Assembly: GCF_044324875.1 (NCBI RefSeq)
Contig: NZ_CP172185.1
Direction: 5' to 3' (one strand)
Length of the DNA stretch: 64,000 nucleotides
DNA from: Escherichia coli
GTDB taxonomy: Bacteria; Pseudomonadota; Gammaproteobacteria; Enterobacterales; Enterobacteriaceae
This document shows positions 30,014 through 54,996 of this stretch, in pieces. The first letter of the stretch is position 1. Each line of letters begins with the position of its first letter. The position numbers and the translations under genes were made by a program. The notes under the pieces are model-generated. The model saw only the letters and a list, made by a program, of their open reading frames with translations. It did no database searches and was not told the DNA's origin.

Positions 30014-30454
30014 AGTAAGTACAAAACCTATTCGTTGTATGACAAATGTCACAATTCGATCATGGATAAATCGGGGCAAAAATGCAATGTTGCAGCACTA
30101 TTTATCTCATATTATTTGAGGGTAATAACCTCACATTATCCCTGAATTAAAAGTGGTAATAATAAAATATTATTTAAGAAATATCGCATGTGGAGACGCA
30201 ATATTAAATATTGTCAACCTAAAGAAACTCCTAAAAACCATATTGAATGACACTTAATATAATTCTTAAAAATAGCCAATTGCCGAATTGTTACCTTGCC
30301 TGCTATTCCGTTAGCTGTAACACTTCCTCCTGCATTATTGGAGAGCCAATATTCAATTACCATAATGTCACCTTATATTCGGAAGTTAATTTCCGTAATA
30401 ACCCTTTCTCATCAACGACTGCATGCTGAGAGGGTGTGAAAAATTAAACTAAAT

Positions 30455-30493
30455 CAGTGTATTGGTAGCTAAAAAGCCAGGGGCGGTAGCGTG
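30455..30493 (+). promoter_or_regulatory. JUMPstart element with ops site (RfaH-dependent antitermination) in the colanic acid operon leader
   Basis: cagtgtattggtagctaaaaagccaggggcggtagcgtg contains the ops core GGCGGTAGCGTG (30482..30493), about 180 bp upstream of wza. Confidence 0.8.
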
Positions 30494-30671
30494 TCTGGAT
30501 GCCTGAAAGACCAGTCTGAATTATTCTGTCAATAGCCTGCGGATGAAATCAATTTTTTTAGGACTGATGCCAGTTAAATTTTTATTCAATTAACTGCAAG
30601 GTAAATGTGCATGGCGACATTGCTATTAATAGTGCACAGGATAATTACTCTGCCAAAGTGATAAATAAACA

Positions 30672-31811
30672 ATGATGAAATCCAAAATGAAATTGATGCC
30701 ATTATTGGTGTCAGTAACCTTGATAAGCGGTTGCACAGTACTTCCGGGCAGCAATATGTCGACGATGGGTAAAGACGTCATCAAACAGCAGGACGCTGAT
30801 TTCGATCTCGACAAAATGGTGAATGTTTATCCGTTGACCCCGCGCCTGATTGATCAATTACGTCCACGACCCAATGTAGCGCGCCCCAATATGACGCTGG
30901 AAAGTGAGATCGCGAATTACCAGTATCGCGTCGGGCCGGGGGACGTTCTTAATGTCACCGTCTGGGATCACCCGGAACTCACCACGCCAGCCGGTCAGTA
31001 CCGCAGCTCCAGCGACACCGGCAACTGGGTACAGCCTGACGGCACTATGTTTTATCCGTATATCGGCAAAGTTCACGTGGTGGGGAAAACGCTCGCTGAA
31101 ATCCGCAGTGATATTACCGGGCGCTTAGCGACGTACATCGCTGACCCGCAGGTGGACGTTAATATCGCCGCCTTCCGCTCGCAAAAAGCCTATATCTCCG
31201 GCCAGGTGAATAAATCCGGCCAACAGGCGATCACCAACGTGCCACTGACCATTCTCGACGCCATCAACGCCGCAGGTGGCCTGACCGACACCGCTGACTG
31301 GCGCAACGTGGTGTTAACACACAATGGTCGTGAAGAACGCATTTCATTGCAGGCGCTGATGCAAAACGGCGACCTCAATCAGAATCGACTGCTTTATCCT
31401 GGCGATATTCTCTACGTGCCGCGTAATGATGATCTGAAAGTGTTTGTGATGGGTGAAGTGAAGAAACAGAGCACCCTGAAAATGGACTTTAGCGGCATGA
31501 CCCTGACTGAAGCCCTTGGTAATGCTGAAGGCATCGACATGACCACCTCCAACGCCAGCGGCATCTTTGTCATTCGTCCGCTGAAAGGCGAGGGTGGGCG
31601 TAACGGCAAGATTGCCAATATCTACCAGCTGGATATGTCCGATGCCACGTCGCTGGTGATGGCGACAGAATTCCGCCTGCAACCTTATGACGTGGTGTAT
31701 GTCACCACCGCACCGGTTTCCCGCTGGAACCGTCTGATCAATCAGTTGCTGCCAACTATTAGCGGTGTCCGTTACATGACGGATACAGCCAGCGACATTC
31801 ATAACTGGTAA
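30672..31811 (+). CDS. wza: outer-membrane polysaccharide export lipoprotein Wza
   Basis: 379-aa ORF with lipoprotein signal [21 protein letters not shown] and polysaccharide export domain. Matches recalled Wza. Confidence 0.95.
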
Positions 31812-31816
31812 TCGTC

Positions 31817-32260
31817 ATGTTTAACAACATTTTAGTTGTCTGTGTCGGCAATATTTGCCGTTCCCCGACGGCGGAACGCTTACTGCAACGTTATCACCCG
31901 GAGCTAAAAGTGGAGTCCGCTGGACTCGGCGCGCTGGTCGGAAAGGGCGCTGATCCTACCGCTATCAGCGTCGCCGCAGAACATCAACTGTCTCTGGAAG
32001 GTCATTGCGCACGGCAAATCAGCCGCCGTCTGTGTCGCAACTACGACCTGATTTTGACCATGGAAAAGCGCCATATCGAACGCTTATGCGAGATGGCACC
32101 GGAGATGCGCGGCAAAGTGATGCTGTTTGGTCACTGGGATAACGAACGTGAAATCCCCGATCCGTATCGCAAAAGCCGGGAAACGTTTGTAGCGGTGTAC
32201 ACATTACTTGAACGGTCTGCCCGCCAGTGGGCGCAGGCATTGAACGCAGAGCAGGTATAA
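31817..32260 (+). CDS. wzb: low-molecular-weight protein-tyrosine phosphatase Wzb
   Basis: 147-aa ORF with CVGNICRSP active-site motif. Confidence 0.95.
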   Translation: MFNNILVVCVGNICRSPTAERLLQRYHPELKVESAGLGALVGKGADPTAISVAAEHQLSLEGHCARQISRRLCRNYDLILTMEKRHIERLCEMAPEMRGKVMLFGHWDNEREIPDPYRKSRETFVAVYTLLERSARQWAQALNAEQV

Positions 32261-32262
32261 GA

Positions 32263-34425
32263 ATGACAGAAAAAGTAAAACAACATGCCGCTCCGGTAAC
32301 GGGCAGTGATGAAATCGATATTGGTCGCCTGGTCGGCACCGTCATTGAAGCGCGCTGGTGGGTGATTGGCATCACCGCCGTATTTGCCCTCTGTGCCGTG
32401 GTTTACACCTTCTTCGCCACGCCGATTTATAGTGCCGACGCACTGGTACAAATCGAGCAAAACAGCGGCAATTCGTTAGTGCAGGACATTGGTTCGGCAT
32501 TAGCCAACAAACCGCCAGCATCGGACGCCGAGATCCAGTTGATTCGTTCGCGCCTGGTGCTTGGTAAAACGGTGGACGATCTCGACCTCGATATTGCGGT
32601 GAGCAAAAACACGTTCCCGATTTTCGGTGCGGGCTGGGATCGCCTGATGGGACGCCAGAACGAGACGGTAAAAGTGACCACCTTTAACCGCCCGAAAGAG
32701 ATGGCGGATCAGGTGTTTACGCTTAATGTGCTGGACGATAAAAACTACACTCTGAGCAGCGATGGCGGCTTTAGCGCCCGTGGGCAAGCGGGCCAGATGC
32801 TGAAAAAAGAAGGCGTCACACTGATGGTTGAAGCCATTCACGCCAGCCCGGGCAGTGAGTTTACCGTCACCAAATACTCCACGCTGGGGATGATCAACCA
32901 ACTGCAAAACAGCCTGACGGTAACGGAGAACGGCAAAGATGCTGGCGTTTTGAGCCTGACTTATACTGGAGAAGATCGCGAACAGATCCGCGACATTCTT
33001 AACAGTATCGCTCGTAACTATCAGGAACAAAATATTGAGCGCAAATCGGCGGAAGCGTCGAAAAGCCTCGCTTTCCTCGCGCAACAGTTACCGGAAGTAC
33101 GTAGCCGCCTCGATGTTGCCGAAAACAAACTGAATGCCTTCCGTCAGGATAAAGATTCAGTTGATCTGCCGCTGGAAGCGAAAGCGGTGCTCGATTCGAT
33201 GGTGAACATCGACGCGCAGTTGAACGAACTGACCTTTAAAGAAGCGGAAATCTCCAAGCTGTACACCAAAGTTCACCCGGCGTATCGCACGCTGCTGGAG
33301 AAACGGCAGGCGCTGGAAGACGAAAAAGCCAAACTTAATGGTCGCGTAACGGCGATGCCGAAAACCCAGCAGGAAATTGTGCGCCTGACCCGCGATGTCG
33401 AGTCTGGGCAGCAGGTCTATATGCAACTGCTGAATAAAGAGCAGGAGCTGAAAATCACCGAAGCCAGCACCGTCGGTGATGTGCGCATTGTTGACCCGGC
33501 AATCACCCAGCCTGGTGTGCTAAAACCGAAGAAAGGGCTGATTATCCTTGGGGCGATTATCCTCGGCCTGATGCTCTCTATCGTGGGTGTGCTGCTGCGC
33601 TCGTTGTTTAATCGCGGTATCGAAAGCCCGCAGGTGCTGGAAGAACACGGTATCAGCGTCTATGCCAGCATCCCGCTGTCGGAATGGCAGAAAGCGCGCG
33701 ATAGCGTCAAAACCATCAAAGGGATTAAACGCTATAAACAGAGCCAGCTACTGGCGGTGGGGAATCCAAGCGATCTGGCGATTGAAGCCATTCGCAGTCT
33801 GCGTACCAGTCTGCACTTCGCGATGATGCAGGCACAGAACAATGTGTTGATGATGACAGGGGTTAGCCCGTCAATCGGTAAAACCTTTGTCTGCGCCAAC
33901 CTGGCGGCGGTGATCAGCCAGACCAATAAACGGGTGTTGTTGATCGACTGCGATATGCGCAAAGGCTACACCCACGAGCTGTTGGGCACCAATAACGTCA
34001 ATGGCCTGTCGGAAATTCTGATTGGTCAGGGCGATATTACTACCGCAGCTAAACCGACCTCTATTGCCAAATTTGACCTGATCCCGCGCGGTCAGGTGCC
34101 GCCAAATCCTTCTGAACTGTTGATGAGCGAACGCTTTGCCGAACTGGTGAACTGGGCGAGTAAAAACTATGACCTGGTGTTGATTGATACGCCGCCGATT
34201 CTGGCAGTGACCGATGCGGCAATTGTTGGTCGTCATGTCGGAACCACGTTAATGGTGGCGCGTTATGCGGTCAACACCTTGAAAGAAGTGGAAACCAGTC
34301 TGAGCCGCTTTGAGCAAAACGGTATTCCGGTGAAAGGGGTGATTTTGAACTCCATCTTCCGCCGCGCCAGCGCGTATCAGGATTATGGCTATTACGAATA
34401 CGAATATAAGTCGGACGCGAAATAA
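32263..34425 (+). CDS. wzc: tyrosine autokinase/polysaccharide co-polymerase Wzc
   Basis: ATG at 32263 gives MTEKVKQHAAPVTGSDEIDIG (720 aa). Walker A (SPSIGKT) and C-terminal Tyr-rich tail (YQDYGYYEYEYKSD). Confidence 0.95.
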   Translation: MTEKVKQHAAPVTGSDEIDIGRLVGTVIEARWWVIGITAVFALCAVVYTFFATPIYSADALVQIEQNSGNSLVQDIGSALANKPPASDAEIQLIRSRLVLGKTVDDLDLDIAVSKNTFPIFGAGWDRLMGRQNETVKVTTFNRPKEMADQVFTLNVLDDKNYTLSSDGGFSARGQAGQMLKKEGVTLMVEAIHASPGSEFTVTKYSTLGMINQLQNSLTVTENGKDAGVLSLTYTGEDREQIRDILNSIARNYQEQNIERKSAEASKSLAFLAQQLPEVRSRLDVAENKLNAFRQDKDSVDLPLEAKAVLDSMVNIDAQLNELTFKEAEISKLYTKVHPAYRTLLEKRQALEDEKAKLNGRVTAMPKTQQEIVRLTRDVESGQQVYMQLLNKEQELKITEASTVGDVRIVDPAITQPGVLKPKKGLIILGAIILGLMLSIVGVLLRSLFNRGIESPQVLEEHGISVYASIPLSEWQKARDSVKTIKGIKRYKQSQLLAVGNPSDLAIEAIRSLRTSLHFAMMQAQNNVLMMTGVSPSIGKTFVCANLAAVISQTNKRVLLIDCDMRKGYTHELLGTNNVNGLSEILIGQGDITTAAKPTSIAKFDLIPRGQVPPNPSELLMSERFAELVNWASKNYDLVLIDTPPILAVTDAAIVGRHVGTTLMVARYAVNTLKEVETSLSRFEQNGIPVKGVILNSIFRRASAYQDYGYYEYEYKSDAK

Positions 34426-34435
34426 CGAGATCCGC

Positions 34436-34500
34436 TGTCGGATGCGATGCTGACGCATCTTATCCGACCTCCGTTCACGCCGCATCCGGCAACAGAACCC
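34436..34500. repeat. REP element between wzc and wcaA
   Basis: cggatgcgatgctgacgcatcttatccgacc...gccgcatccggca REP-type palindromes. Confidence 0.65.
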
Positions 34501-34553
34501 GTAAACAAGCTTATAAACCGGCAGAACATCTCGACACTCCGGGAGAACAACCT

Positions 34554-35393
34554 ATGAAAGACAATCCGCTGATCTCAATCTATATGCCGACCTGGAATCG
34601 CCAACAACTGGCGATTCGGGCGATAAAATCGGTCCTGCGCCAGGACTATAACAACTGGGAGATGATCATCGTGGATGATTGCTCCACCTCCTGGGAACAA
34701 CTCCAACAGTACGTCACCGCCCTCAACGATCCGCGTATCACTTACATTCACAACGACATTAACAACGGGGCGTGCGCGGTACGTAACCAGGCGATTATGC
34801 TGGCGCAAGGGGAATATATCACCGGGATCGATGATGATGATGAATGGACCCCCAACCGTCTGAGCGTCTTCCTCGCCCATAAACAGCAACTGGTCACACA
34901 CGCCTTTTTGTACGCTAACGACTACGTTTGCCAGGGCGAAGTCTATTCCCAACCGGCAAGTTTGCCACTGTATCCCAAATCGCCGTATTCACGCCGCCTG
35001 TTCTACAAACGCAATATCATTGGCAATCAGGTCTTTACCTGGGCGTGGCGTTTCAAAGAGTGTTTGTTCGATACCGAACTGAAAGCGGCACAGGATTACG
35101 ACATTTTCCTGCGGATGGTGGTGGAGTATGGCGAACCGTGGAAAGTGGAAGAGGCGACGCAGATCCTGCATATCAATCACGGTGAAATGCAGATCACCTC
35201 GTCACCGAAAAAATTCTCCGGATACTTCCACTTTTACCGTAAGCACAAAGACAAATTTGACCGCGCCAGCAAAAAATATCAGCTGTTTACCCTCTACCAG
35301 ATCCGCAATAAACGCATGACCTGGCGCACTTTGCTGACGCTGCTGTCGGTGCGTAACGGCAAACGTCTGGCTGATGGTATTCGGGGGCGCTAA
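34554..35393 (+). CDS. wcaA: colanic acid GT2 glycosyltransferase WcaA
   Basis: 279-aa ORF; GT2 signatures (ISIYMPTWNR, DDDDEW); position in the cluster. Confidence 0.9.
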   Translation: MKDNPLISIYMPTWNRQQLAIRAIKSVLRQDYNNWEMIIVDDCSTSWEQLQQYVTALNDPRITYIHNDINNGACAVRNQAIMLAQGEYITGIDDDDEWTPNRLSVFLAHKQQLVTHAFLYANDYVCQGEVYSQPASLPLYPKSPYSRRLFYKRNIIGNQVFTWAWRFKECLFDTELKAAQDYDIFLRMVVEYGEPWKVEEATQILHINHGEMQITSSPKKFSGYFHFYRKHKDKFDRASKKYQLFTLYQIRNKRMTWRTLLTLLSVRNGKRLADGIRGR

Positions 35394-35395
35394 AG

Positions 35396-35884
35396 ATGCT
35401 GGAAGATCTGCGCGCCAACAGCTGGAGTTTACGCCCGTGCTGCATGGTTCTTGCCTATCGCGTCGCTCATTTTTGTTCGGTGTGGCGCAAAAAGAACGTC
35501 CTCAACAATCTGTGGGCGGCCCCGCTGTTGGTGCTGTATCGCATTATTACCGAATGCTTTTTCGGTTATGAAATCCAGGCCGCCGCGACCATTGGCCGCC
35601 GCTTTACTATCCATCACGGTTACGCCGTAGTGATCAATAAAAACGTGGTAGCGGGGGATGATTTCACCATTCGCCACGGCGTCACTATCGGCAATCGTGG
35701 TGCCGATAACATGGCATGTCCACACATTGGCAACGGCGTCGAACTCGGTGCCAACGTCATTATTCTTGGTGATATCACGATTGGTAACAACGTCACCGTG
35801 GGCGCGGGCAGCGTGGTGCTCGACTCTGTCCCGGACAACGCGCTGGTGGTGGGAGAAAAAGCGCGAGTGAAGGTAATTAAATGA
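35396..35884 (+). CDS. wcaB: colanic acid acetyltransferase WcaB (hexapeptide-repeat)
   Basis: 162-aa ORF with left-handed beta-helix hexapeptide repeats (IGNRG..., IGNNVTVGAGSVV). Confidence 0.9.
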   Translation: MLEDLRANSWSLRPCCMVLAYRVAHFCSVWRKKNVLNNLWAAPLLVLYRIITECFFGYEIQAAATIGRRFTIHHGYAVVINKNVVAGDDFTIRHGVTIGNRGADNMACPHIGNGVELGANVIILGDITIGNNVTVGAGSVVLDSVPDNALVVGEKARVKVIK

Positions 35885-37098
35885 ATATTCTGCAATTTAA
35901 TGTGCGACTGGCGGAAGGCGGGGCAGCAGGTGTGGCGTTAGATCTCCACCAGCGCGCGCTGCAACAGGGGCTGGCGTCACATTTTGTCTACGGCTACGGC
36001 AAAGGCGGCAAAGAGAGCGTCAGCCATCAGAACTATCCGCAGGTCATCAAACATACGCCGCGGATGACCGCGATGGCGAACATTGCGTTGTTTCGTCTGT
36101 TTAATCGCGATCTGTTTGGCAATTTCAATGAGTTATATCGCACTATTACCCGCACACCGGGTCCGGTGGTCCTGCATTTTCATGTGCTGCACAGCTACTG
36201 GTTGAATCTTAACAGCGTGGTGCGCTTTTGCGAAAAAGTGAAAAACCATAAACCGGATGTCACTCTGGTCTGGACGCTGCACGACCACTGGAGCGTTACC
36301 GGACGCTGCGCCTTTACCGACGGTTGCGAAGGCTGGAAAACGGGCTGCCAGAAATGCCCGACCTTAAATAATTATCCGCCGGTGAAGATTGATCGCGCAC
36401 ACCAACTGGTGGCGGGCAAACGGCAGTTATTCCGTGAGATGCTGGCACTGGGCTGTCAGTTTATTTCCCCCAGCCAGCATGTGGCTGACGCTTTCAATAA
36501 CCTGTACGGTCCAGGGCGTTGCCGGATTATCAATAACGGTATTGATATGGCAACCGAAGCGATTTTGGCGGACTTGCCTCCGGTACGCGAAACCCAGGGC
36601 AAGCCGAAAATCGCGGTGGTGGCGCATGATCTGCGTTACGACGGCAAAACTAACCAGCAACTGGTACGCGAGATGATGGCGCTGGGTGACAAAATCGAAC
36701 TGCATACTTTCGGTAAGTTCTCACCGTTCACCGCTGGTAATGTGGTCAATCACGGCTTTGAAACCGACAAACGTAAACTGATGAGCGCGCTCAACCAGAT
36801 GGATGCGCTGGTATTCAGTTCTCGCGTCGATAACTACCCGCTGATTTTGTGTGAGGCGTTATCGATTGGCGTGCCGGTGATTGCCACCCATAGCGATGCG
36901 GCGCGTGAAGTGCTGCAAAAATCCGGTGGTAAAACCGTCAGCGAAGAAGATGTGCTGCAGCTGGTGCAGTTAAGCAAACCGGAAATCGCACAGGCGATAT
37001 TTGGTACCACGCTGGCTGAGTTCAGCCAGCGCAGCCGCGCCGCCTACAGTGGACAACAGATGCTGGAGGAGTATGTCAACTTCTATCAGAATCTGTAG
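35881..37098 (+). CDS. wcaC: colanic acid GT4 glycosyltransferase WcaC
   Basis: 405-aa ORF; start overlaps the wcaB stop; position in the cluster. Confidence 0.9.
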   Translation: MNILQFNVRLAEGGAAGVALDLHQRALQQGLASHFVYGYGKGGKESVSHQNYPQVIKHTPRMTAMANIALFRLFNRDLFGNFNELYRTITRTPGPVVLHFHVLHSYWLNLNSVVRFCEKVKNHKPDVTLVWTLHDHWSVTGRCAFTDGCEGWKTGCQKCPTLNNYPPVKIDRAHQLVAGKRQLFREMLALGCQFISPSQHVADAFNNLYGPGRCRIINNGIDMATEAILADLPPVRETQGKPKIAVVAHDLRYDGKTNQQLVREMMALGDKIELHTFGKFSPFTAGNVVNHGFETDKRKLMSALNQMDALVFSSRVDNYPLILCEALSIGVPVIATHSDAAREVLQKSGGKTVSEEDVLQLVQLSKPEIAQAIFGTTLAEFSQRSRAAYSGQQMLEEYVNFYQNL

Positions 37099-38290
37099 CT
37101 ACCTGCTGCTGCCGCTGATTTACCTGTTGGTTAACGTCAAAATCGCCCAGCTTGGCGAAAGTTTCCCCATCACCATCGTCACTTTTTTACCTGTCTTGTT
37201 ACTGCTGTTTTTAGAACGCATCAGCGTTAAAAAATTGATGATTGCCTTAGGGATTGGTGCGGGACTCACGGCGTTTAACTATCTGTTTGGTCAGTCGTTG
37301 GATGCCAGTAAATACGTCACTTCAACCATGCTGTTTGTCTATATTGTGATCATTATTGGCATGGTGTGGAGTATTCGCTTTAAAACGATTTCGCCACACA
37401 ACCATCGCAAGATATTACGTTTCTTTTATCTGGTGGTCGGGTTGGTGGTGGCGCTGGCGGCGGTGGAGATGGCGCAAATTATCCTCACCGGCGGCAGCAG
37501 TATTATGGAATCGATTTCGAAATATCTGATTTACAGCAACAGCTATGTGCTGAATTTCATCAAATTCGGCGGCAAGCGCACGACAGCACTTTATTTCGAA
37601 CCGGCATTTTTCGCTCTGGCATTAATCTCAATTTGGCTCAGCATCAAACAGTTTGGTATCAAAACCCCTAAAACCGATGCTATGATTCTCGCAGGGATAA
37701 TATTATCCGGATCGTTTTCAGGGGTTATGACCTTTATCCTGTTTTATTTGCTGGAGTGGGCATTTCAATATCTGAATAAAGAGGCGATTAAGAAAAAGTT
37801 ACCGTTAGCATTGATTTCTCTGGCTGTATTCCTGGTTGGTGTGGTAATCGCGTTTCCTTATATTTCCACCCGTCTGGGCGATTTAGGTACGGAAGGATCG
37901 TCATCATATTATCGTATTGTCGGTCCGCTGGTGATGGTCGGTTATTCTTTGACCCATATTGACGGTGTAGTCAGATTTGGCTCACTTTATGAATATGTCG
38001 CATCATTCGGAATATTTAACGGTGCGGATGTCGGAAAAACCATAGACAATGGTTTGTATCTGCTGATTATTTATTTTTCCTGGTTCGCGGTGTTTTTATC
38101 ACTGTGGTACATGGGGAAAGTGATAAAAATGATGATCAACGCTTTTGGTGATAACCGCAATTTTCGCGTGCAATTATATCTTTTTACTCCGGTATCGCTG
38201 TTTTTTACCGGTTCGATATTTAGCCCGGAATATGCATTTTTAATCGTCTGTCCGTTTATTTTGCGAAAAGCGTTAAATATTACGAGGTAA
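37073..38290 (+). CDS. wcaD: colanic acid polymerase WcaD
   Basis: ATG at 37073 gives [28 protein letters not shown] (405 aa), a polytopic membrane protein. Overlaps the wcaC 3' end in another frame. The upstream TTG extension was rejected. Confidence 0.88.
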
Positions 38291-38300
38291 GAATAAGAAC

Positions 38301-39047
38301 ATGTTGCTTAGCATAATCACTGTCGCGTTTCGTAACCTCGAAGGGATAGTCAAAACACACGCCTCGCTGGCGCATCTGGCGCAGGCGGACGATATCAGCT
38401 TCGAATGGATTGTTGTCGATGGCGGTTCCAATGATGGCACCCGTGAGTATCTGGAAAATCTCAATGGTATCTTTAACCTACGCTTTGTCAGCGAGCCAGA
38501 TAATGGTATCTACGACGCCATGAACAAAGGCATTGCGATGGCACAAGGCAAGTTCGCGCTGTTTCTCAACTCGGGCGATATTTTTCATCAGGATGCCGCA
38601 AATTTTGTCCGTAAGTTAAAAATGCAAAAAGATAACGTGATGATCACCGGCGATGCGCTGCTGGATTTTGGCGACGGGCATAAAATTAAACGTAGCGCCA
38701 AACCGGGTTGGTATATTTATCACAGCCTGCCCGCCAGTCATCAGGCGATATTTTTTCCGGTATCCGGCTTGAAAAAATGGCGTTATGACCTGGAATATAA
38801 AGTTTCTTCCGACTACGCGCTGGCAGCCAAAATGTATAAAGCCGGTTATGCATTTAAAAAACTCAATGGCCTGGTGTCTGAATTTTCTATGGGTGGAGTA
38901 TCTACCACCAATAATATGGAATTATGTGCTGACGCCAAAAAAGTCCAACGGCAGATATTGCACGTGCCTGGCTTTTGGGCTGAATTATCCTGGCATTTAC
39001 GCCAACGTACTACCTCAAAGACGAAAGCCTTATATAACAAAAGCTGA
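38301..39047 (+). CDS. wcaE: colanic acid GT2 glycosyltransferase WcaE
   Basis: 248-aa ORF; GT2-like N-terminus ([23 protein letters not shown]). Confidence 0.9.
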
Positions 39048-39062
39048 ATATAAGGGAAAACG

Positions 39063-39611
39063 ATGCAGGATTTAAGTGGTTTCTCGGTACCGAAAGGGTT
39101 CCGGGGCGGCAACGCTATTAAAGTGCAATTGTGGTGGGCAGTACAGGCAACATTATTTGCCTGGTCGCCGCAAGTATTGTATCGCTGGCGGGCTTTTTTA
39201 TTACGTTTATTCGGCGCAAAAATAGGAAAAAACGTAGTTATTCGTCCGTCAGTAAAAATTACCTATCCGTGGAAATTAACTTTAGGTGATTACGCGTGGG
39301 TCGGCGATGAGGTCAATTTATATACCCTCGGTGAAATAACCATTGGCGCACATTCTGTGATATCGCAAAAAAGTTATTTATGCACCGGTAGCCACGACCA
39401 TGCAAGTCAACATTTCACCATTAACGCCACGCCTATTGTGATTGGCGAGAAATGCTGGCTGGCGACAGATGTTTTTGTTGCCCCTGGCGTCACGATCGGC
39501 GACGGCACCGTCGTGGGTGCGCGAAGCAGTGTTTTTAAATCGCTTCCGGCAAATGTGGTTTGCCGGGGGAATCCCGCAGTGGTGATACGCGAACGCGTTG
39601 AAACTGAATAA
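39063..39611 (+). CDS. wcaF: colanic acid acetyltransferase WcaF (hexapeptide-repeat)
   Basis: 182-aa ORF with hexapeptide repeat region. Confidence 0.9.
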   Translation: MQDLSGFSVPKGFRGGNAIKVQLWWAVQATLFAWSPQVLYRWRAFLLRLFGAKIGKNVVIRPSVKITYPWKLTLGDYAWVGDEVNLYTLGEITIGAHSVISQKSYLCTGSHDHASQHFTINATPIVIGEKCWLATDVFVAPGVTIGDGTVVGARSSVFKSLPANVVCRGNPAVVIRERVETE

Positions 39612-39637
39612 ATTCAAAAAATACAGAGGAATAAGAC

Positions 39638-40759
39638 ATGTCAAAAGTCGCTCTCATCACCGGTGTAACCGGACAAGACGGTTCTTACCTGGCAGAGTTT
39701 CTGCTGGAAAAAGGTTACGAGGTGCATGGTATTAAGCGTCGTGCATCGTCATTCAACACCGAGCGCGTGGATCACATTTATCAGGATCCGCACACCTGCA
39801 ACCCGAAATTCCATCTGCATTATGGCGACCTGAGTGATACCTCCAACCTGACGCGTATTTTGCGTGAAGTGCAGCCGGATGAAGTGTACAACCTGGGCGC
39901 AATGAGCCACGTTGCGGTTTCTTTTGAGTCACCGGAATATACCGCAGACGTCGATGCGATGGGTACGCTACGCCTGCTGGAGGCGATCCGCTTCCTCGGT
40001 CTGGAAAAGAAAACCCGTTTCTATCAGGCTTCCACCTCTGAACTGTACGGTCTGGTGCAGGAAATTCCGCAGAAAGAGACCACGCCGTTCTACCCGCGAT
40101 CTCCGTATGCGGTCGCCAAACTGTACGCCTACTGGATCACCGTTAACTACCGCGAATCCTACGGCATGTACGCCTGTAACGGTATTCTCTTCAACCATGA
40201 ATCCCCGCGCCGCGGCGAAACCTTCGTTACCCGCAAAATCACCCGCGCAATCGCCAACATCGCTCAGGGGCTGGAGTCGTGCCTGTACCTCGGCAATATG
40301 GATTCCCTGCGCGACTGGGGCCATGCCAAAGACTACGTAAAAATGCAGTGGATGATGCTGCAACAGGAACAGCCGGAAGATTTCGTTATCGCGACCGGCG
40401 TTCAGTACTCCGTGCGTCAGTTCGTGGAAATGGCGGCAGCACAGCTGGGTATCAAACTGCGCTTTGAGGGCACGGGCGTTGAAGAGAAGGGTATTGTGGT
40501 TTCCGTCACCGGGCATGACGCGCCGGGCGTGAAACCGGGTGATGTGATTATCGCCGTTGACCCGCGTTACTTCCGTCCGGCAGAAGTTGAAACGCTGCTC
40601 GGTGACCCGACCAAAGCGCACGAAAAACTGGGCTGGAAACCGGAAATCACCCTCAGAGAGATGGTGTCTGAAATGGTGGCTAATGACCTCGAAGCGGCGA
40701 AAAAACACTCTCTGCTGAAATCTCACGGCTACGACGTGGCGATCGCGCTGGAGTCATAA
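39638..40759 (+). CDS. gmd: GDP-mannose 4,6-dehydratase
   Basis: 373-aa ORF with SDR N-terminus [31 protein letters not shown]; matches recalled Gmd. Confidence 0.95.
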
Positions 40760-40761
40760 GC

Positions 40762-41727
40762 ATGAGTAAACAACGCATTTTTATCGCTGGCCATCGCGGG
40801 ATGGTCGGTTCTGCCATCAGGCGGCAGCTCGAACAGCGCGGTGATGTGGAACTGGTATTACGCACCCGCGACGAGCTGAACCTGCTGGACAGCCGCGCCG
40901 TGCATGATTTCTTTGCCAGCGAACGTATTGACCAGGTCTATCTGGCGGCGGCGAAAGTGGGCGGCATTGTTGCCAACAACACGTATCCGGCGGATTTCAT
41001 CTACCAGAACATGATGATTGAGAGCAACATCATTCACGCCGCGCATCAGAACGACGTGAACAAACTGCTGTTTCTCGGATCGTCCTGTATCTACCCGAAA
41101 CTGGCAAAACAGCCGATGGCAGAAAGCGAGTTATTGCAGGGTACGCTGGAGCCGACCAACGAGCCTTACGCCATTGCCAAAATCGCCGGGATCAAACTGT
41201 GCGAATCTTACAATCGCCAGTACGGACGCGATTACCGCTCGGTCATGCCGACCAACCTGTACGGGCCGCACGACAACTTCCACCCGAGTAACTCGCATGT
41301 GATCCCTGCATTGCTGCGTCGCTTCCACGAGGCGACGGCACAGAATGCGCCGGACGTGGTGGTGTGGGGCAGCGGTACGCCGATGCGCGAATTTCTGCAT
41401 GTCGATGATATGGCGGCGGCGAGCATTCATGTCATGGAGCTGGCGCACGAAGTCTGGCTGGAGAACACCCAGCCGATGCTGTCGCACATTAACGTCGGCA
41501 CGGGCGTTGACTGCACTATCCGCGAGCTGGCGCAAACCATCGCCAAAGTGGTGGGTTACAAAGGTCGGGTGGTTTTTGATGCCAGTAAACCGGATGGTAC
41601 ACCGCGCAAACTGCTGGATGTGACGCGCCTGCATCAGCTTGGCTGGTATCACGAAATCTCACTGGAAGCGGGGCTTGCCAGCACTTACCAGTGGTTCCTT
41701 GAGAATCAAGACCGCTTTCGGGGGTAA
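40762..41727 (+). CDS. fcl: GDP-L-fucose synthase (GDP-4-keto-6-deoxymannose 3,5-epimerase/4-reductase)
   Basis: 321-aa ORF with [19 protein letters not shown] Rossmann N-terminus. Confidence 0.95.
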
Positions 41728-41729
41728 TG

Positions 41730-42209
41730 ATGTTTTTACGTCAGGAAGACTTTGCCACGGTAGTGCGCTCCACACCGCTTGTCTCTCTCGACTTTATTGT
41801 TGAGAACAGTCGCGGCGAGTTTCTGCTTGGCAAAAGAACCAACCGCCCGGCGCAGGGTTACTGGTTTGTGCCGGGAGGGCGCGTGCAGAAAGACGAAACG
41901 CTGGAAGCCGCATTTGAGCGGCTGACGATGGCGGAACTGGGGCTACGTCTGCCGATAACAGCAGGCCAGTTTTACGGTGTCTGGCAGCACTTTTATGACG
42001 ATAACTTCTCCGGCTCGGATTTTACCACTCACTATGTGGTGCTCGGTTTTCGCATCAGAGTCGCGGAAGATGAGCTGTTACTGCCGGATGAGCAGCATGA
42101 CGATTACCGCTGGCTGACGCCGGACGCGTTGCTCGCCAGTGACAATGTTCACGCTAACAGCCGCGCCTATTTTCTCGCTGAGAAGCGTGCCGGAGTACCC
42201 GGATTATGA
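41730..42209 (+). CDS. gmm: GDP-mannose mannosyl hydrolase (Nudix)
   Basis: ATG at 41730 gives [24 protein letters not shown] (159 aa); Nudix fold. Confidence 0.9.
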
Positions 42210-43429
42210 AAATACTGGTCTACGGCATTAACTACTCGCCGGAGTTAACCGGCACCGGCAAGTACACCGGCGAGATGGTGGAATGGCTGGCAGCACAAGG
42301 TCATGAGGTGCGGGTTATTACCGCGCCGCCTTACTACCCGCAGTGGCAGGTGGGCGAGAACTATTCCGCCTGGCGGTACAAACGGGAAGAGGGGGCCGCC
42401 ACGGTGTGGCGCTGCCCGCTGTACGTGCCAAAACAGCCGAGCACCCTGAAACGCCTGTTGCATCTCGGTAGTTTTGCCGCCAGCAGTTTCTTTCCTCTGA
42501 TGGCGCAACGTCGCTGGAAGCCGGATCGCATTATCGGCGTGGTGCCAACGCTGTTTTGCACGCCGGGAATGCGCCTGCTGGCGAAACTCTCTGGTGCGCG
42601 TACCGTGCTGCATATTCAGGATTACGAAGTGGACGCCATGCTGGGGCTGGGCCTTGCCGGAAAAGGCAAAGGCGGCAAAGTGGCACTGCTGGCGACGGCG
42701 TTCGAACGTAGCGGACTGCATAACGTCGATAACGTCTCCACGATTTCGCGCTCGATGATGAATAAAGCCATCGAAAAAGGCGTGGCGGCGGAAAACGTCA
42801 TCTTCTTCCCCAACTGGTCGGAAATTGCCCGTTTTCAGCATGTCGCAGAGGCCGATGTTGATGCCCTTCGTAACCAGCTTGGCCTGCCGGATAACAAAAA
42901 AATCATTCTTTACTCCGGCAATATTGGTGAAAAGCAGGGGCTGGAAAACGTTATTGAAGCTGCCGATCGCCTGCGTGATGAACCGCTGATTTTTGCCATT
43001 GTCGGGCAGGGCGGCGGCAAAGCGTGGCTGGAAAAAATGGCGCAGCAGCGTGGACTGCACAATATGCAATTTTTTCCGCTGCAATCGTATGACGCTTTAC
43101 CCGCACTGCTGAAGATGGGCGATTGCCATCTGGTGGTGCAAAAACGCGGCGCGGCAGATGCCGTATTACCGTCGAAACTAACCAATATTCTGGCAGTAGG
43201 CGGTAACGCGGTGATTACCGCAGAGGCCCACACAGAACTGGGGCAGCTTTGCGAAACCTTTCCGGGCATTGCGGTTTGCGTAGAACCGGAATCGGTCGAG
43301 GCGCTGGTGGCGGGGATCCGTCAGGCGCTCCTGCTGCCCAAACACAACACGGTGGCACGTGAATATGCCGAACGCACGCTCGATAAAGAGAACGTGTTAC
43401 GTCAATTTATAAATGATATTCGGGGATAA
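42206..43429 (+). CDS. wcaI: colanic acid GT4 glycosyltransferase WcaI
   Basis: 407-aa ORF; start overlaps the gmm stop; position in the cluster. Confidence 0.9.
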
Positions 43430-43431
43430 TT

Positions 43432-44868
43432 ATGGCGCAGTCGAAACTCTATCCAGTTGTGATGGCAGGTGGCTCCGGTAGCCGCTTATGGCCGCTTTCC
43501 CGCGTACTTTACCCCAAGCAGTTTTTATGCCTGAAAGGCGATCTCACCATGCTGCAAACCACCATCTGCCGCCTGAACGGCGTGGAGTGCGAAAGCCCGG
43601 TGGTGATTTGCAATGAGCAGCACCGCTTTATTGTCGCGGAACAGCTGCGTCAACTGAACAAACTTACCGAGAACATTATTCTCGAACCGGCAGGGCGAAA
43701 CACGGCACCTGCCATTGCGCTGGCGGCGCTGGCGGCAACACGTCATAGCCCGGAGAGCGACCCGTTAATGCTGGTATTGGCGGCGGATCATGTGATTGCC
43801 GATGAAGACGCGTTCCGTGCCGCCGTGCGTAATGCCATGCCATATGCCGAAGCGGGCAAGCTGGTGACCTTCGGCATTGTGCCGGATCTACCAGAAACCG
43901 GTTATGGCTATATTCGTCGCGGTGAAGTATCTGCGGGTGAGCAGGATACGGTGGCCTTTGAAGTGGCGCAGTTTGTCGAAAAACCGAATCTGGAAACCGC
44001 TCAGGCCTATGTGGCAAGCGGCGAATATTACTGGAACAGCGGTATGTTCCTGTTCCGCGCCGGACGCTATCTCGAAGAACTGAAAAAATATCGCCCGGAT
44101 ATTCTCGACGCCTGTGAAAAAGCGATGAGCGCCATCGATCCGGATCTCGATTTTATTCGTGTGGATGAAGAAGCGTTTCTCGCCTGCCCGGAAGAGTCGG
44201 TGGATTACGCAGTCATGGAACGTACGGCAGATGCTGTTGTGGTGCCGATGGATGCGGGCTGGAGCGATGTCGGTTCCTGGTCCTCTTTATGGGAGATCAG
44301 CGCCCACACCGCCGAGGGCAACGTTTGCCACGGCGATGTGATTAATCACAAAACTGAAAACAGCTATGTGTATGCCGAATCTGGCCTGGTCACCACCGTC
44401 GGGGTGAAAGATTTGGTGGTAGTGCAGACCAAAGATGCGGTGCTGATTGCTGACCGTAACGCGGTGCAGGATGTGAAAAAAGTGGTCGAGCAGATCAAAG
44501 CCGATGGTCGCCATGAGCATCGGGTGCATCGCGAAGTGTATCGTCCGTGGGGCAAATATGACTCTATCGACGCGGGCGACCGCTACCAGGTGAAACGCAT
44601 CACCGTGAAACCGGGCGAAGGCTTGTCGGTACAGATGCACCATCACCGCGCGGAACACTGGGTAGTGGTCGCGGGAACGGCAAAAGTCACCATTGATGGT
44701 GATATCAAACTGCTTGGTGAAAACGAGTCCATTTATATTCCGCTGGGGGCGACGCATTGCCTGGAAAACCCGGGGAAAATTCCGCTCGATTTAATTGAAG
44801 TGCGCTCCGGCTCTTATCTCGAGGAGGATGATGTGGTGCGCTTCGCGGATCGCTACGGGCGGGTGTAA
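43432..44868 (+). CDS. cpsB: mannose-1-phosphate guanylyltransferase (colanic acid copy)
   Basis: 478-aa ORF with [13 protein letters not shown] nucleotidyltransferase motif and C-terminal cupin ([17 protein letters not shown]). Confidence 0.95.
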
Positions 44869-44995
<127 letters not shown>

Positions 44996-45060
44996 TAACG
45001 ACAAAAACAAAATTGGCCGTTTCGGTCAGGGCCAACTATTGCCTGAAAAAGGGTAACGAC

Positions 45061-46431
45061 ATGAAAAAATTAACCTGCTTTAAAGCCTATGATATTCGCG
45101 GGAAATTAGGCGAAGAACTGAATGAAGATATTGCCTGGCGTATTGGGCGTGCCTATGGCGAATTTCTCAAACCGAAAACCATTGTGTTAGGCGGTGATGT
45201 CCGCCTCACCAGCGAAATCTTAAAACTGGCGCTGGCAAAAGGTTTACAGGATGCGGGTGTCGATGTGCTGGATATTGGCATGTCCGGCACCGAAGAGATC
45301 TATTACGCCACGTTCCATCTCGGCGTGGATGGCGGCATCGAAGTCACTGCCAGCCATAATCCGATGGATTACAACGGCATGAAGCTGGTACGCGAAGGGG
45401 CTCGCCCGATCAGCGGCGATACCGGACTGCGCGACGTCCAGCGTCTGGCAGAAGCCAATGACTTCCCTCCTGTCGATGAAACCAAACGCGGTCGCTATCA
45501 GCAAATCAATCTGCGTGATGCTTACGTTGATCACCTGTTCGGTTATATCAACGTCAAAAACCTCACGCCGCTCAAGCTGGTGATTAACTCCGGGAACGGC
45601 GCAGCGGGTCCGGTAGTTGACGCCATTGAAGCCCGCTTTAAAGCCCTCGGCGCACCTGTGGAATTGATCAAAGTGCACAACACGCCGGACGGCAATTTCC
45701 CCAACGGTATTCCTAACCCGCTGCTGCCGGAATGCCGCGACGACACCCGCAATGAGGTCATCAAACACGGCGCGGATATGGGCATTGCCTTTGATGGCGA
45801 TTTTGACCGCTGCTTCCTGTTTGACGAAAAAGGGCAGTTTATCGAGGGCTACTACATTGTCGGCCTGCTGGCAGAAGCGTTCCTCGAAAAAAATCCTGGC
45901 GCGAAGATCATCCACGATCCACGTCTCTCCTGGAACACCGTTGATGTGGTGACTGCTGCTGGCGGCACGCCGGTAATGTCGAAAACCGGACACGCCTTTA
46001 TTAAAGAACGTATGCGCAAGGAAGACGCCATCTATGGTGGCGAAATGAGCGCTCACCATTACTTCCGCGATTTCGCTTACTGCGACAGCGGCATGATCCC
46101 GTGGCTGCTGGTCGCCGAACTGGTGTGCCTGAAAGGAAAAACGCTGGGCGAACTGGTGCGCGACCGGATGGCAGCGTTTCCGGCAAGCGGTGAGATCAAC
46201 AGCAAACTGGCGCACCCCGTTGAGGCGATTAACCGCGTCGAACAGCATTTTAGCCGCGAGGCGCTGGCGGTGGATCGCACCGATGGCATCAGCATGACCT
46301 TTGCCGACTGGCGCTTTAATCTGCGCTCCTCCAACACCGAACCGGTGGTGCGGTTGAATGTGGAATCGCGCGGTGATGTGCCGCTGATGGAAGCGCGAAC
46401 GCGAACTCTGCTGGCGTTGCTGAACGAGTAA
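45061..46431 (+). CDS. cpsG: phosphomannomutase (colanic acid copy)
   Basis: ATG at 45061 gives [29 protein letters not shown] (456 aa) with phosphohexomutase active-site Ser motif (TASHNP). The upstream extension was rejected. Confidence 0.93.
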
Positions 46432-46485
46432 TGTCGGATCTTCCCTTACCCCACTGCGGGTAAGGGGCTAATAACAGGAACAACG

Positions 46486-47880
46486 ATGACAAATCTAAAA
46501 AAGCGCGAGCGAGCGAAAACCAATGCATCGTTAATCTCTATGGTGCAACGCTTTTCAGATATCACCATCATGTTTGCCGGACTATGGCTGGTTTGCGAAG
46601 TGAGCGGCCTGTCATTCCTCTACATGCACCTGTTGGTGGCGCTGATTACGCTGGTGGTGTTCCAGATGCTGGGTGGCATCACCGATTTTTATCGCTCATG
46701 GCGAGGTGTTCGGGCAGCGACAGAATTTGCCCTGCTGCTACAAAACTGGACCTTAAGCGTGATTTTCAGCGCCGGACTGGTGGCGTTCAACAATGATTTC
46801 GACACGCAACTGAAAATCTGGCTGGCGTGGTATGGGCTGACCAGCATCGGACTGGTGGTTTGCCGTTCATGTATTCGCATTGGGGCGGGCTGGCTGCGTA
46901 ATCATGGCTATAACAAGCGTATGGTCGCCGTAGCGGGGGATTTAGCCGCCGGACAAATGCTGATGGAGAGCTTCCGTAATCAGCCGTGGTTAGGGTTTGA
47001 AGTGGTGGGCGTATACCACGACCCAAAACCGGGCGGCGTTTCTAACGACTGGGCGGGCAATCTGCAACAGCTGGTAGAGGATGCAAAAGCGGGCAAGATT
47101 CATAACGTCTATATCGCGATGCAGATGTGCGACGGCGCGCGCGTGAAAAAACTGGTCCATCAACTGGCGGACACCACCTGTTCGGTGCTGCTGATCCCCG
47201 ATGTCTTTACCTTCAACATTCTCCATTCCCGTATCGAAGAGATGAACGGCGTACCGGTGGTGCCGCTTTACGACACACCGCTTTCCGGGGTTAACCGCCT
47301 GCTCAAACGTGCGGAAGACATTGTGCTGGCGACGCTTATCCTGCTGCTGATCTCCCCGGTGCTGTGTTGCATTGCGCTGGCGGTGAAACTCAGTTCACCT
47401 GGGCCGGTTATTTTCCGCCAGACTCGCTACGGCATGGACGGCAAACCGATCAAAGTGTGGAAGTTCCGTTCCATGAAAGTGATGGAGAACGACAAAGTGG
47501 TGACTCAGGCGACGCAGAACGATCCGCGCGTCACCAAAGTGGGGAATTTTCTACGCCGCACCTCGCTGGATGAATTGCCGCAGTTTATTAATGTGCTGAC
47601 CGGGGGGATGTCGATTGTCGGTCCGCGTCCGCATGCGGTGGCGCATAACGAACAGTATCGCCAGCTCATTGAAGGCTACATGCTGCGCCATAAGGTGAAA
47701 CCGGGCATTACCGGCTGGGCGCAGATTAACGGCTGGCGCGGCGAAACCGACACGCTGGAGAAAATGGAAAAACGCGTCGAGTTCGACCTTGAGTACATCC
47801 GCGAATGGAGCGTCTGGTTCGATATCAAAATCGTTTTCCTGACGGTGTTCAAGGGCTTCGTTAACAAAGCGGCATATTGA
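46486..47880 (+). CDS. wcaJ: undecaprenyl-phosphate glucose-1-phosphate transferase WcaJ
   Basis: 464-aa ORF with N-terminal TM segments and C-terminal bacterial sugar transferase domain (SIVGPRPH). Confidence 0.93.
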   Translation: MTNLKKRERAKTNASLISMVQRFSDITIMFAGLWLVCEVSGLSFLYMHLLVALITLVVFQMLGGITDFYRSWRGVRAATEFALLLQNWTLSVIFSAGLVAFNNDFDTQLKIWLAWYGLTSIGLVVCRSCIRIGAGWLRNHGYNKRMVAVAGDLAAGQMLMESFRNQPWLGFEVVGVYHDPKPGGVSNDWAGNLQQLVEDAKAGKIHNVYIAMQMCDGARVKKLVHQLADTTCSVLLIPDVFTFNILHSRIEEMNGVPVVPLYDTPLSGVNRLLKRAEDIVLATLILLLISPVLCCIALAVKLSSPGPVIFRQTRYGMDGKPIKVWKFRSMKVMENDKVVTQATQNDPRVTKVGNFLRRTSLDELPQFINVLTGGMSIVGPRPHAVAHNEQYRQLIEGYMLRHKVKPGITGWAQINGWRGETDTLEKMEKRVEFDLEYIREWSVWFDIKIVFLTVFKGFVNKAAY

Positions 47881-47881
47881 T

Positions 47882-49360
47882 ATGAGCTTACGTGAAAAAA
47901 CCATCAGCGGCGCGAAGTGGTCGGCGATTGCCACGGTGATCATCATCGGCCTCGGGTTGGTGCAGATGACCGTGCTGGCGCGGATTATCGACAACCACCA
48001 GTTCGGCCTGCTGACTGTGTCGCTGGTGATCATCGCGCTGGCAGATACGCTTTCTGACTTCGGTATCGCTAACTCCATTATTCAGCGAAAAGAAATCAGC
48101 CACCTTGAACTCACCACGCTGTACTGGCTGAACGTTGGGCTGGGGCTTGTGGTGTGCGTGGCGGTGTTTTTGTTGAGTGATCTCATTGGTGACATGCTGA
48201 ATAACCCGGACCTGGCACCCTTGATTAAAACATTGTCGCTGGCGTTTGTGGTGATCCCCCACGGGCAACAGTTCCGCGCGTTGATGCAGAAGGAGCTGGA
48301 GTTCAACAAAATCGGCATGATCGAAACCAGCGCGGTGCTGGCGGGCTTCACTTTTACGGTGGTTAGCGCCCATTTCTGGCCGCTGGCGATGACCGCGATC
48401 CTCGGTTATCTGGTCAATAGTGCGGTAAGAACGCTGCTGTTTGGCTACTTTGGCCGCAAAATTTATCGCCCCGGTCTGCATTTCTCGCTGGCGTCGGTGG
48501 CACCGAACTTACGCTTTGGTGCCTGGCTGACGGCGGACAGCATCATCAACTATCTCAACACCAACCTTTCAACGCTGGTGCTGGCGCGTATTCTCGGCGC
48601 GAGTGTGGCAGGGGGGTACAACCTGGCGTACAACGTGGCCGTTGTGCCGCCGATGAAACTGAACCCCATCATCACCCGCGTGTTGTTTCCGGCGTTTGCC
48701 AAAATTCAGGACGACACCGAAAAGCTGCGCGTCAACTTCTACAAGCTGCTGTCGGTGGTGGGGATTATCAACTTTCCGGCGCTGCTCGGGCTGATGGTGG
48801 TGTCAAATAACTTTGTACCGCTGGTCTTTGGTGAGAAGTGGAACAGCATTATTCCGGTGCTGCAATTGCTGTGTGTGGTGGGGCTGCTGCGCTCAGTGGG
48901 GAACCCGATTGGTTCGCTGCTGATGGCGAAAGCGCGGGTCGATATCAGCTTTAAATTCAACGTATTCAAAACCTTTCTGTTTATTCCGGCGATTGTTATT
49001 GGTGGGCAGATGGCGGGCGCAATCGGCGTCACGCTTGGCTTCCTGCTGGTGCAGATTATCAACACCATTCTGAGCTATTTCGTGATGATTAAACCGGTGC
49101 TCGGTTCCAGTTATCGCCAGTACATCCTGAGTTTGTGGCTGCCGTTTTATCTCTCGCTGCCGACGCTGGTGGTTAGTTCTGCGCTGGGCATTGTGCTGAA
49201 AGGGCAACTGGCGCTGGGGATGCTGTTGGCGGTGCAAATAGCCGCGGGCGTGCTGGCGTTTGTGGTGATGATTGTGCTGTCGCGCCATTCGCTGGTGGTG
49301 GAAGTGAAGCGTCAGTTTTGTCGCAGCGAAAAAATGAAAATGCTTTTACGGGCGGGGTGA
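47882..49360 (+). CDS. wzxC: colanic acid repeat-unit flippase WzxC
   Basis: 492-aa polytopic MOP-family membrane protein; position in the cluster. Confidence 0.93.
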   Translation: MSLREKTISGAKWSAIATVIIIGLGLVQMTVLARIIDNHQFGLLTVSLVIIALADTLSDFGIANSIIQRKEISHLELTTLYWLNVGLGLVVCVAVFLLSDLIGDMLNNPDLAPLIKTLSLAFVVIPHGQQFRALMQKELEFNKIGMIETSAVLAGFTFTVVSAHFWPLAMTAILGYLVNSAVRTLLFGYFGRKIYRPGLHFSLASVAPNLRFGAWLTADSIINYLNTNLSTLVLARILGASVAGGYNLAYNVAVVPPMKLNPIITRVLFPAFAKIQDDTEKLRVNFYKLLSVVGIINFPALLGLMVVSNNFVPLVFGEKWNSIIPVLQLLCVVGLLRSVGNPIGSLLMAKARVDISFKFNVFKTFLFIPAIVIGGQMAGAIGVTLGFLLVQIINTILSYFVMIKPVLGSSYRQYILSLWLPFYLSLPTLVVSSALGIVLKGQLALGMLLAVQIAAGVLAFVVMIVLSRHSLVVEVKRQFCRSEKMKMLLRAG

Positions 49361-49387
49361 ATGGTTGTTTTCGGTTCCGACAACGGT

Positions 49388-49672
49388 TGCCGGATGCGGC
49401 GTGAACGCCTTATCCGTCCTACGGCTCTGTGCTCGGGTCTTGTAGGCCTGATAAGACGCGCCAGCGTCGCATCAGGCACTAAATGCCGGATGCGGCGTAA
49501 AACGCCTTATCCATCCTACGGTTCTGTGCTCGGGACCTGTAGGCCTGATAAGACGCGTCAGCGTCGCATCAGGCACTGAATGCTGGATGCGGCGTGAACG
49601 CCTTATCCGGCCTACGGTTCTGTGCTCGGGTCTTGTAGGCCTGATAAGACGCGCCAGCGTCGCATCAGGCAA
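49388..49672. repeat. BIME cluster: three tandem ~95-bp units of paired REP elements between wzxC and wcaK
   Basis: Three near-identical copies of gccggatgcggcgtgaacgccttatccg.cctacgg.tctgtgctcggg.cttgtaggcctgataagacgcg.cagcgtcgcatcaggca. Confidence 0.85.
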
Positions 49673-49731
49673 AAAACGGCAACGAACACAACAAACACAG
49701 CCTCACCTGGCATCAAATTTATGAGGAAAAA

Positions 49732-54702: not shown

Positions 54703-54962
54703 ATCCCAAGCCAATGTAACAATAATTTAGATAAATAGCGGCAGCTAACATCCCGGCGTCTATGCTTTAAACAAAGGAATGTTACTGTCGTTTTTCTTTT
54801 TAAAACAAAGAATAACAACGAGTTAACCTACTAAGTTTAATCTATTTTTTGTTGGATTTATCCTTGTTTCTGACAGCATTTGGTAAGACAATTGGCGTTT
54901 GAATTTAAGATAGCTTTGCGATAGCTAGCGGGGCGGGGTACATCTTTGGCATTTTGCTAGTG

Positions 54963-54996
54963 CACTGGTAGCTGTTAAGCCAGGGGCGGTAGCGTG
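54963..54996 (+). promoter_or_regulatory. JUMPstart element with ops site upstream of the O-antigen gene cluster
   Basis: cactggtagctgttaagccaggggcggtagcgtg contains the ops core GGCGGTAGCGTG (54985..54996), in the galF to O-antigen intergenic region. Confidence 0.85.

Follow-up and report, generated by a model that had tools for sequence, protein, structure and literature searches.

The JUMPstart sequence was reportedly described by Hobbs and Reeves in 1994, and the link between JUMPstart, RfaH and the colanic acid operon is said to date from 1994-96. What is called antitermination in this setting is today understood to include anti-pausing, the exclusion of NusG, counter-silencing of H-NS and the recruitment of ribosomes as well. 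The closest described system is the cps (wza) JUMPstart of E. coli K-12 and CFT073, which is the same element as the one analyzed here. In CFT073, its ops is GGCGGTAGCGTG, located in a UTR on the nontemplate strand, with a distance of 190 nt to the first gene (Hustmyer et al. 2022, PMC9765446), and RfaH requires ops to lie on that strand (PMC9765446). When wild-type CFT073 is cultured in rich medium, its colanic acid operon is silent, the promoter being silenced by H-NS; RfaH is found at wza only after deletion of both hns and stpA, the ChIP-seq signal at the wza ops in that mutant is gone upon deletion of rfaH, and the locus has been termed a cryptic RfaH target (PMC9765446). Other authors speak of a "JUMPStart-RfaH antitermination mechanism" for the wca operon (PMC9976346, citing Stout 1996 and Hobbs & Reeves 1994), state that colanic acid production is RfaH-regulated (PMC3101779), or state that the genes downstream of wzc need RfaH (PMC3673037), the last source using the review-type wording "presumably cps" for RfaH control.

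The ops elements of rfaQ (waa), hlyCABD, kps and F tra have the same 12-nt consensus with the TG pause at positions 11-12, are on the non-template strand and lie in operon leaders. These operons are expressed and RfaH-dependent in ordinary culture, whereas that for colanic acid must first be induced through Rcs or relieved of H-NS. Another related arrangement is that of the group 1 capsules (K30 / Klebsiella cps), in which JUMPstart precedes a wza-wzb-wzc export module, as it does here. In group 1 loci, however, the element comes after galF and before wzi, whereas in the present case a divergent yegH promoter region precedes it and the operon opens with wza. RfaH itself, an elongation factor, has been characterized in E. 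coli (PMC9765446, PMC5995543). In particular, bases C3-G8 of ops are needed for its recruitment, C3:G8 closes a non-template DNA hairpin with T6 flipped into RfaH, T11-G12 form the pause dinucleotide, and RfaH recruits the 30S subunit to leaders without a Shine-Dalgarno sequence (PMC5995543).

Here, we describe the sequence, strand, position and conservation of the element that precedes wza in a 64,000-nucleotide stretch of an E. coli chromosome, which we call the window, together with the anatomy of the operon behind it. For the occupancy of an identical site by RfaH and for the structural mechanism, we draw on the literature.

Results

Positions 28000-58000 of the window were scanned against all Rfam families. 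Ahead of wza, the scan returned the JUMPstart family RF01707 with 57.3 bits (gathering score 35, E=1.8e-12), covering model positions 1-38 of 38, and an additional, permissive scan of the yegH-wza intergenic region gave nothing credible besides JUMPstart. The element reads CAGTGTATTGGTAGCTAAAAAGCCAGGGGCGGTAGCGTG, and its core GGCGGTAG sits at its 3' end, as expected of a member of RF01707. An earlier note on this DNA had proposed a canonical ops core within a JUMPstart-like sequence and a comparison with the JUMPstart consensus; the full-length match above the gathering score and the exact ops bear this proposal out. All bases that matter for RfaH are intact in the wza ops, i.e. C3, G4, G5, T6, A7 and G8 as well as T11-G12. 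The predicted pause is at T11 (30492), the next base being G12 (30493), and the consensus-pause bases G-10, T-1 and G+1 are all present.

The stem of the JUMPstart element has 5 base pairs, two of which are G-U pairs, and it fits the RF01707 model. Its folding energy is no different from that of shuffled sequences (Z +0.11). The values for the ops DNA hairpin (Z -2.15, for a 12-mer with trivial energies) and for the structure of the whole leader (Z -0.31) are uninformative, and any covariation in the JUMPstart stem has to be read with its 3' arm fixed by the 18-mer search pattern of the sample described below.

The start of ops is 190 nt from the ATG of wza (30672), leaving a gap of 178 nt, in agreement with the roughly 180 bp claimed before. 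The element is intergenic and on the + strand, like the operon, meaning that ops is on the non-template strand that RfaH requires, and the objection that it might lie on the wrong strand fails. Upstream, yegH is transcribed divergently (- strand, ATG at 30013), and the region between the two genes (30014-30671) is 658 bp long with 34% GC, versus 53% for the operon. The earlier description of a 650-bp AT-rich leader is right as to size and composition, but the word leader does not fit the whole of it: the 658 bp make up a divergent promoter and intergenic region, and only about 340 nt are predicted to be transcribed as leader. Downstream, 20 genes from wza to wcaM run co-directionally on the + strand over 22,963 bp, in line with the more than 20 kb given for the cps operon in the earlier note. 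Wza scores 729 bits against NF011658, a polysaccharide export family. The rfaH gene lies outside the 64-kb window. The coordinates of all features are collected in Table 1.

Table 1. Features of the window around the wza JUMPstart element and along the two polysaccharide operons.
Feature	Position	Strand	Basis or remark
RcsAB-box-like sequence TAAGAAATATCGCA	30175-30188		pattern match
RcsAB-box-like sequence TAAAGAAACTCCTA	30220-30233		nearly invariant across genera
Palindromic RcsAB-box-like sequence CTTAATATAATTCTTAAAA	30253-30271		nearly invariant across genera
Predicted cps (wza) promoter, -35 TTGCCT, 17-nt spacer, -10 AACACT	30296-30324	+	cross-genus conservation
Predicted untranslated leader, ~340 nt, ops at ~+151 to +162	30332-30671	+	from predicted promoter
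JUMPstart element, 39 nt	30455-30493	+	Rfam RF01707 full-length match
JUMPstart stem-loop UUGGU / GCCAG, 9-nt loop	30462-30480	+	Rfam alignment structure line
ops GGCGGTAGCGTG, RfaH recruitment and pause site	30482-30493	+	exact 12-nt match
Island: T-tract, AGGA, ATG (30567), ORF MPVKFLFN (30567-30593)	30553-30598	+	conservation 0.91-0.96
Colanic acid operon wza-wzb-wzc-wcaABCDEF-gmd-fcl-gmm-wcaI-cpsBG-wcaJ-wzxC-wcaKLM	30672-53634	+	ORFs, RefSeq annotation of a 99%-identical genome
REP-like stem-loop, wzc-wcaA gap	34437-34468	+	RNA fold
algC RNA motif RF02929, cpsB (manC)-cpsG (manB) gap	45007-45056	+	Rfam 78.2 bits
Two REP elements, wzxC-wcaK gap	49445-49612	-	Rfam naRNA4, 68-74 bits
Second JUMPstart, O-antigen (rfb/wzx) cluster	54958-54996	+	Rfam 59.2 bits

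How well is this arrangement kept? Within the species, the 671-bp yegH-wza region finds a match in 4,831 of 5,426 complete E. coli genomes, and leader identity among the E. coli genomes listed is 97.6-99.6%. An 81-nt segment around JUMPstart is at least 95% identical in 4,817 of the 5,426 and identical in 1,224. Relative to the K-12/CFT073 element nothing of substance is different: CFT073 shares the 12-nt ops and its -190 position, and the only common E. coli polymorphism is a T/C at 30460, in the 5' half of JUMPstart. For the comparison across species, we collected loci with the 18-mer GCCAGGGGCGGTAGCGTG, one genome per species, obtaining at least 120 loci, nearly all from Enterobacterales. 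As the sample was chosen on an 18-nt core that holds ops, positions 30476-30493 are fixed by the search pattern and the frequency of wza leaders without ops is outside its reach; the independent evidence of conservation consists of the 5' half of the element, its constant distance from wza and the counts within E. coli. Among the matches listed, 115 loci extend far enough downstream to be assessed, and 40 of them encode a Wza homologue within 3 kb; the 4 kb downstream are open on the same strand at 76 of 81 JUMPstart loci, and the distance from ops to wza is again about 180 nt in some 24 other enterobacterial genome records, from Citrobacter, Enterobacter, Cedecea, Superficieibacter, Escherichia and other genera. 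The exact 18-nt core was also met on contigs that are short or of low coverage and carry the labels Opitutales, Arthrobacter, Erysipelotrichia, Spirochaetaceae and Actinomycetes (loci L028, L056, L062, L064 and L068), most likely as a result of enterobacterial contamination or mis-binning.

When 22 distinct leaders are aligned, most columns have decayed to about 50% identity and sharp islands remain, namely 30175-30271, 30296-30324, JUMPstart, 30553-30577 and the ~40 nt that immediately precede wza. The 5' half of JUMPstart, which is outside the search pattern, is 79-90% conserved versus about 50% for the flanking leader.

The second of these islands is the predicted cps promoter. Its motifs CTTGCC and AGCTG.AACA show little or no variation over the 22 distinct leaders from several genera, its spacer contains a TG (30316-17), and its -10 reads AACAAT in most other genera. 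It is the only promoter-like island kept across genera, about 150 nt upstream of ops. Transcription of cps would accordingly be expected to start near 30332, as read off this island, which would place ops inside the cps transcript; for CFT073 wza, the transcription start site is entered as NA (Hustmyer et al. 2022, PMC9765446). A promoter-scan match, TGGAGA-16-CATAAT (30339-30366), was considered as the cps promoter and set aside, the stretch being poorly conserved (~0.5-0.7). A C-rich, G-poor Rho-loading region upstream of JUMPstart was looked for as well, and the composition found there (C 0.19, G 0.16) is too weak to support such a claim. All three RcsAB-box-like candidates are upstream of the predicted promoter, in the zone 30175-30271; in the window as a whole, the degenerate RcsAB pattern is not enriched (28 found versus 35.8 expected). 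Many E. coli genomes carry in RefSeq a minus-strand, 49-aa "hypothetical protein", WP_162829205.1, at approximately 30214-30363, and this call, which overlies the conserved RcsAB-like boxes and the promoter-like island, is probably spurious.

The window holds a second JUMPstart, the classical one of the O17/O44/O73/O77/O106-family O-antigen cluster. Its ops (54985-54996) is identical to that of wza, 24 of the 27 preceding bases match, both elements are on the coding strand in an AT-rich leader, and the first gene of either operon is without a good Shine-Dalgarno sequence. The O-antigen element is separated from galF by 256 nt and from the ATG of the first glycosyltransferase gene (55096) by 99 nt, as compared with the 178-nt gap for wza, and it has no counterpart of the conserved island and mini-ORF described below for the wza leader. 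Wild-type CFT073 has RfaH on its O-antigen ops, in contrast to the cryptic wza site (PMC9765446). The window has 3 occurrences of the pattern GGCGGTAGNNTG versus 0.05 expected (~60-fold), a number reached in none of 100 shuffles; two of the three sites are in the leaders of the two polysaccharide operons and one is intragenic. An ops-like GGCGGTAGCCTG is present on the sense strand of baeS (4365-4376, -; ORF 4086-5489, 932 bits to NF007837), and it is probably a chance occurrence, since intragenic ops sites in CFT073 give no RfaH ChIP signal (PMC9765446).

As for what a modified polymerase might have to overcome, the operon has three long untranslated gaps, wzc-wcaA (128 nt), cpsB-cpsG (192 nt) and wzxC-wcaK (371 nt), in which Rho would have access to an uncoupled polymerase. 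The sites that RfaH overrides further downstream are ones that we infer. In group 1 capsule loci a stem-loop attenuator follows wzc, and the colanic acid operon has a stem-loop in the gap after wzc, too; unlike the group 1 attenuator, the latter is REP-like, has no U-tract behind the stem and is not called by the terminator scan. We treat it as a candidate internal attenuator, which RfaH-modified polymerase may read through. Intrinsic terminators as the targets of antitermination were considered and dropped: a scan of 30400-50399 found 26 sites versus 24.5 expected, with no convincing + strand intrinsic terminator in the intergenic gaps of that range. Since intrinsic terminators are not enriched, the target of antitermination is not visible in the sequence.

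The start of wza also deserves attention. The gene has no Shine-Dalgarno sequence (dG -2.3 kcal/mol versus a median of -2.8 for random 20-mers), and most internal genes of the operon score between -5 and -14 kcal/mol. The lack of such a sequence at wza fits the RfaH-mediated recruitment of 30S subunits to leaders of this kind. The ~40 nt upstream of the wza start, GCACAGGATAATTACTCTGCCAAAGTGATAAATAAACAATG (30634-30680), are 91-96% conserved across genera, again with no Shine-Dalgarno sequence, which suggests a conserved translational control element; the ACAGGAU motif in this region might be a CsrA-type site.

Finally, between ops and wza there is the conserved island TTTTTTTAGGACTGATGCCAGTTAA (30553-30577), whose conservation is on par with that of the wza start region. 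Placed at a fixed distance of ~72 nt after ops, it leads into an 8-codon mini-ORF, MPVKFLFN. Of the window's own JUMPstart and those of the 120 loci listed, 121 in all, 25 are followed by a ATGCCAGTT start 66-73 nt beyond ops; they are the leaders in which ops precedes wza by ~180 nt, joined by a single locus (L097) with wza further downstream. Across leaders, the mini-ORF has 8, 12, 27 or 33 codons, and some of the changes are synonymous. In five leaders wza is ~440-466 nt after ops, and two of these five keep the T-tract/A(A/G)GA motif without the ATG; the island motif in these leaders resembles an RcsAB box. In the window, the island resembles an RcsAB-box half-site and overlaps a possible hairpin, UGC(C)AGUUAA/UUAACUGCA. 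RNAalifold predicts no pairs in the island; for the named hairpin, 78% of cells are paired with weak covariation, and 15 of 500 shuffles score equally high. Over the stretch of the leader compared, the RefSeq record of MG1655 lists no gene. A 6-codon ORF right after ops (ATGCCTGAAAGACCAGTCTGA, 30500-30520) was examined too and rejected, as it is not conserved in other genera.

Discussion

The element analyzed here is the known JUMPstart/ops signal found in the leader of the colanic acid (slime capsule) operon in E. coli, an ordinary, textbook member of its family at an already known location. We consider it very probable that it serves to load RfaH for transcription of the 23-kb operon to its end. 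RfaH-dependent antitermination, as proposed in the earlier note, is supported in this sense: RfaH has been seen by ChIP on the identical wza ops of CFT073, and the statements in the literature concur.

Following the published work on RfaH, the events at this locus may be pictured as follows. Transcription would start at the RcsAB-activated, H-NS-silenced promoter approximately 150 nt upstream of ops. On reaching ops, RNA polymerase would pause at U11, with the non-template GGCGGTAGCGTG exposed on the surface of the bubble, and the exposed strand would form a tiny hairpin (C3:G8) with T6 flipped out. Autoinhibited RfaH would then recognize G5 and T6 and take the place of NusG on the polymerase, its C-terminal domain refolding. 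The RfaH-modified complex would be expected to resist pausing, Rho-dependent termination and H-NS/StpA roadblocks over the 23 kb, and the loading of ribosomes at wza is probably helped by RfaH as well.

One could ask whether such a short, G-rich motif might not simply be a functionless chance match. Indeed, ops-like 12-mers do arise inside genes, as GGCGGTAGCCTG does in baeS, and the intragenic ops sites of CFT073 bind no RfaH (PMC9765446). However, what is matched ahead of wza is a 39-nt covariance model, 22 bits over threshold, only 0.05 motifs are expected per window, the same position recurs in several genera, and the identical site of CFT073 is bound by RfaH. The model score, the cross-genus position and the presence of RfaH on the identical site refute this reading, to which we assign a practically negligible probability. 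A different suggestion, and in our estimate a very improbable one, makes ops a mere neighbor of an RNA stem-loop in the 5' half of JUMPstart (30455-30481), which would do its work without RfaH, for instance in the stability or processing of the transcript. The 5-bp stem is part of the Rfam model, and the 5' half is 79-90% conserved without having been selected for and is common to the O-antigen JUMPstart. Against this, the stem is weak, with its two G-U pairs, it folds no better than shuffled sequences, and the literature considered here credits the functional effects to the ops part (PMC5995543).

Could the element, then, be genuine and still count for little? It may be that ops binds RfaH but plays a minor part in colanic acid expression, initiation (RcsAB activation, H-NS silencing, RcsA turnover) setting nearly all of the output, and that the element is for the most part vestigial, inherited in common with group 1 capsule loci. 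Such a view draws on CFT073, where the wild type is silent and without RfaH signal and RfaH appears only once initiation is de-repressed (PMC9765446), and also on the operon itself, which has no excess of intrinsic terminators and whose body, at 53% GC, is beyond the leader no typical AT-rich H-NS target. However, the element and its distance from wza have been kept across genera within a leader that is otherwise at ~50% identity, RfaH is stated to be required for the genes downstream of wzc (PMC3673037), and the three untranslated gaps, 128-371 nt long, are places that expose an uncoupled polymerase to Rho. This reading appears improbable to us, and the loading of RfaH for the whole operon remains the reading that we favor.

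What the conserved island downstream of ops does is a separate question. It could be a second, so far undescribed functional element of the wza leader, namely a ribosome-loading site, at which a ribosome would join the RfaH-modified polymerase before the SD-less wza is reached, and if this were true, the leader would contain a dedicated ORF tied to the transcription-translation coupling by RfaH. We find this rather improbable; the lack of the ATG in two of five leaders, the hairpin potential and the likeness to an RcsAB box all count against a simple uORF. The evidence allows equally for an RcsB-type operator half-site, for an RNA hairpin or for nothing being translated there at all.

JUMPstart has been known in the cps leader since the 1990s, and RfaH binding at this site has been known from ChIP-seq since 2022. 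The element would, very probably, explain how a capsule operon of 23 kb and 20 genes, with long untranslated gaps, is transcribed end to end when Rcs fires. JUMPstart/ops also serves as the handle in the engineering of colanic acid production.
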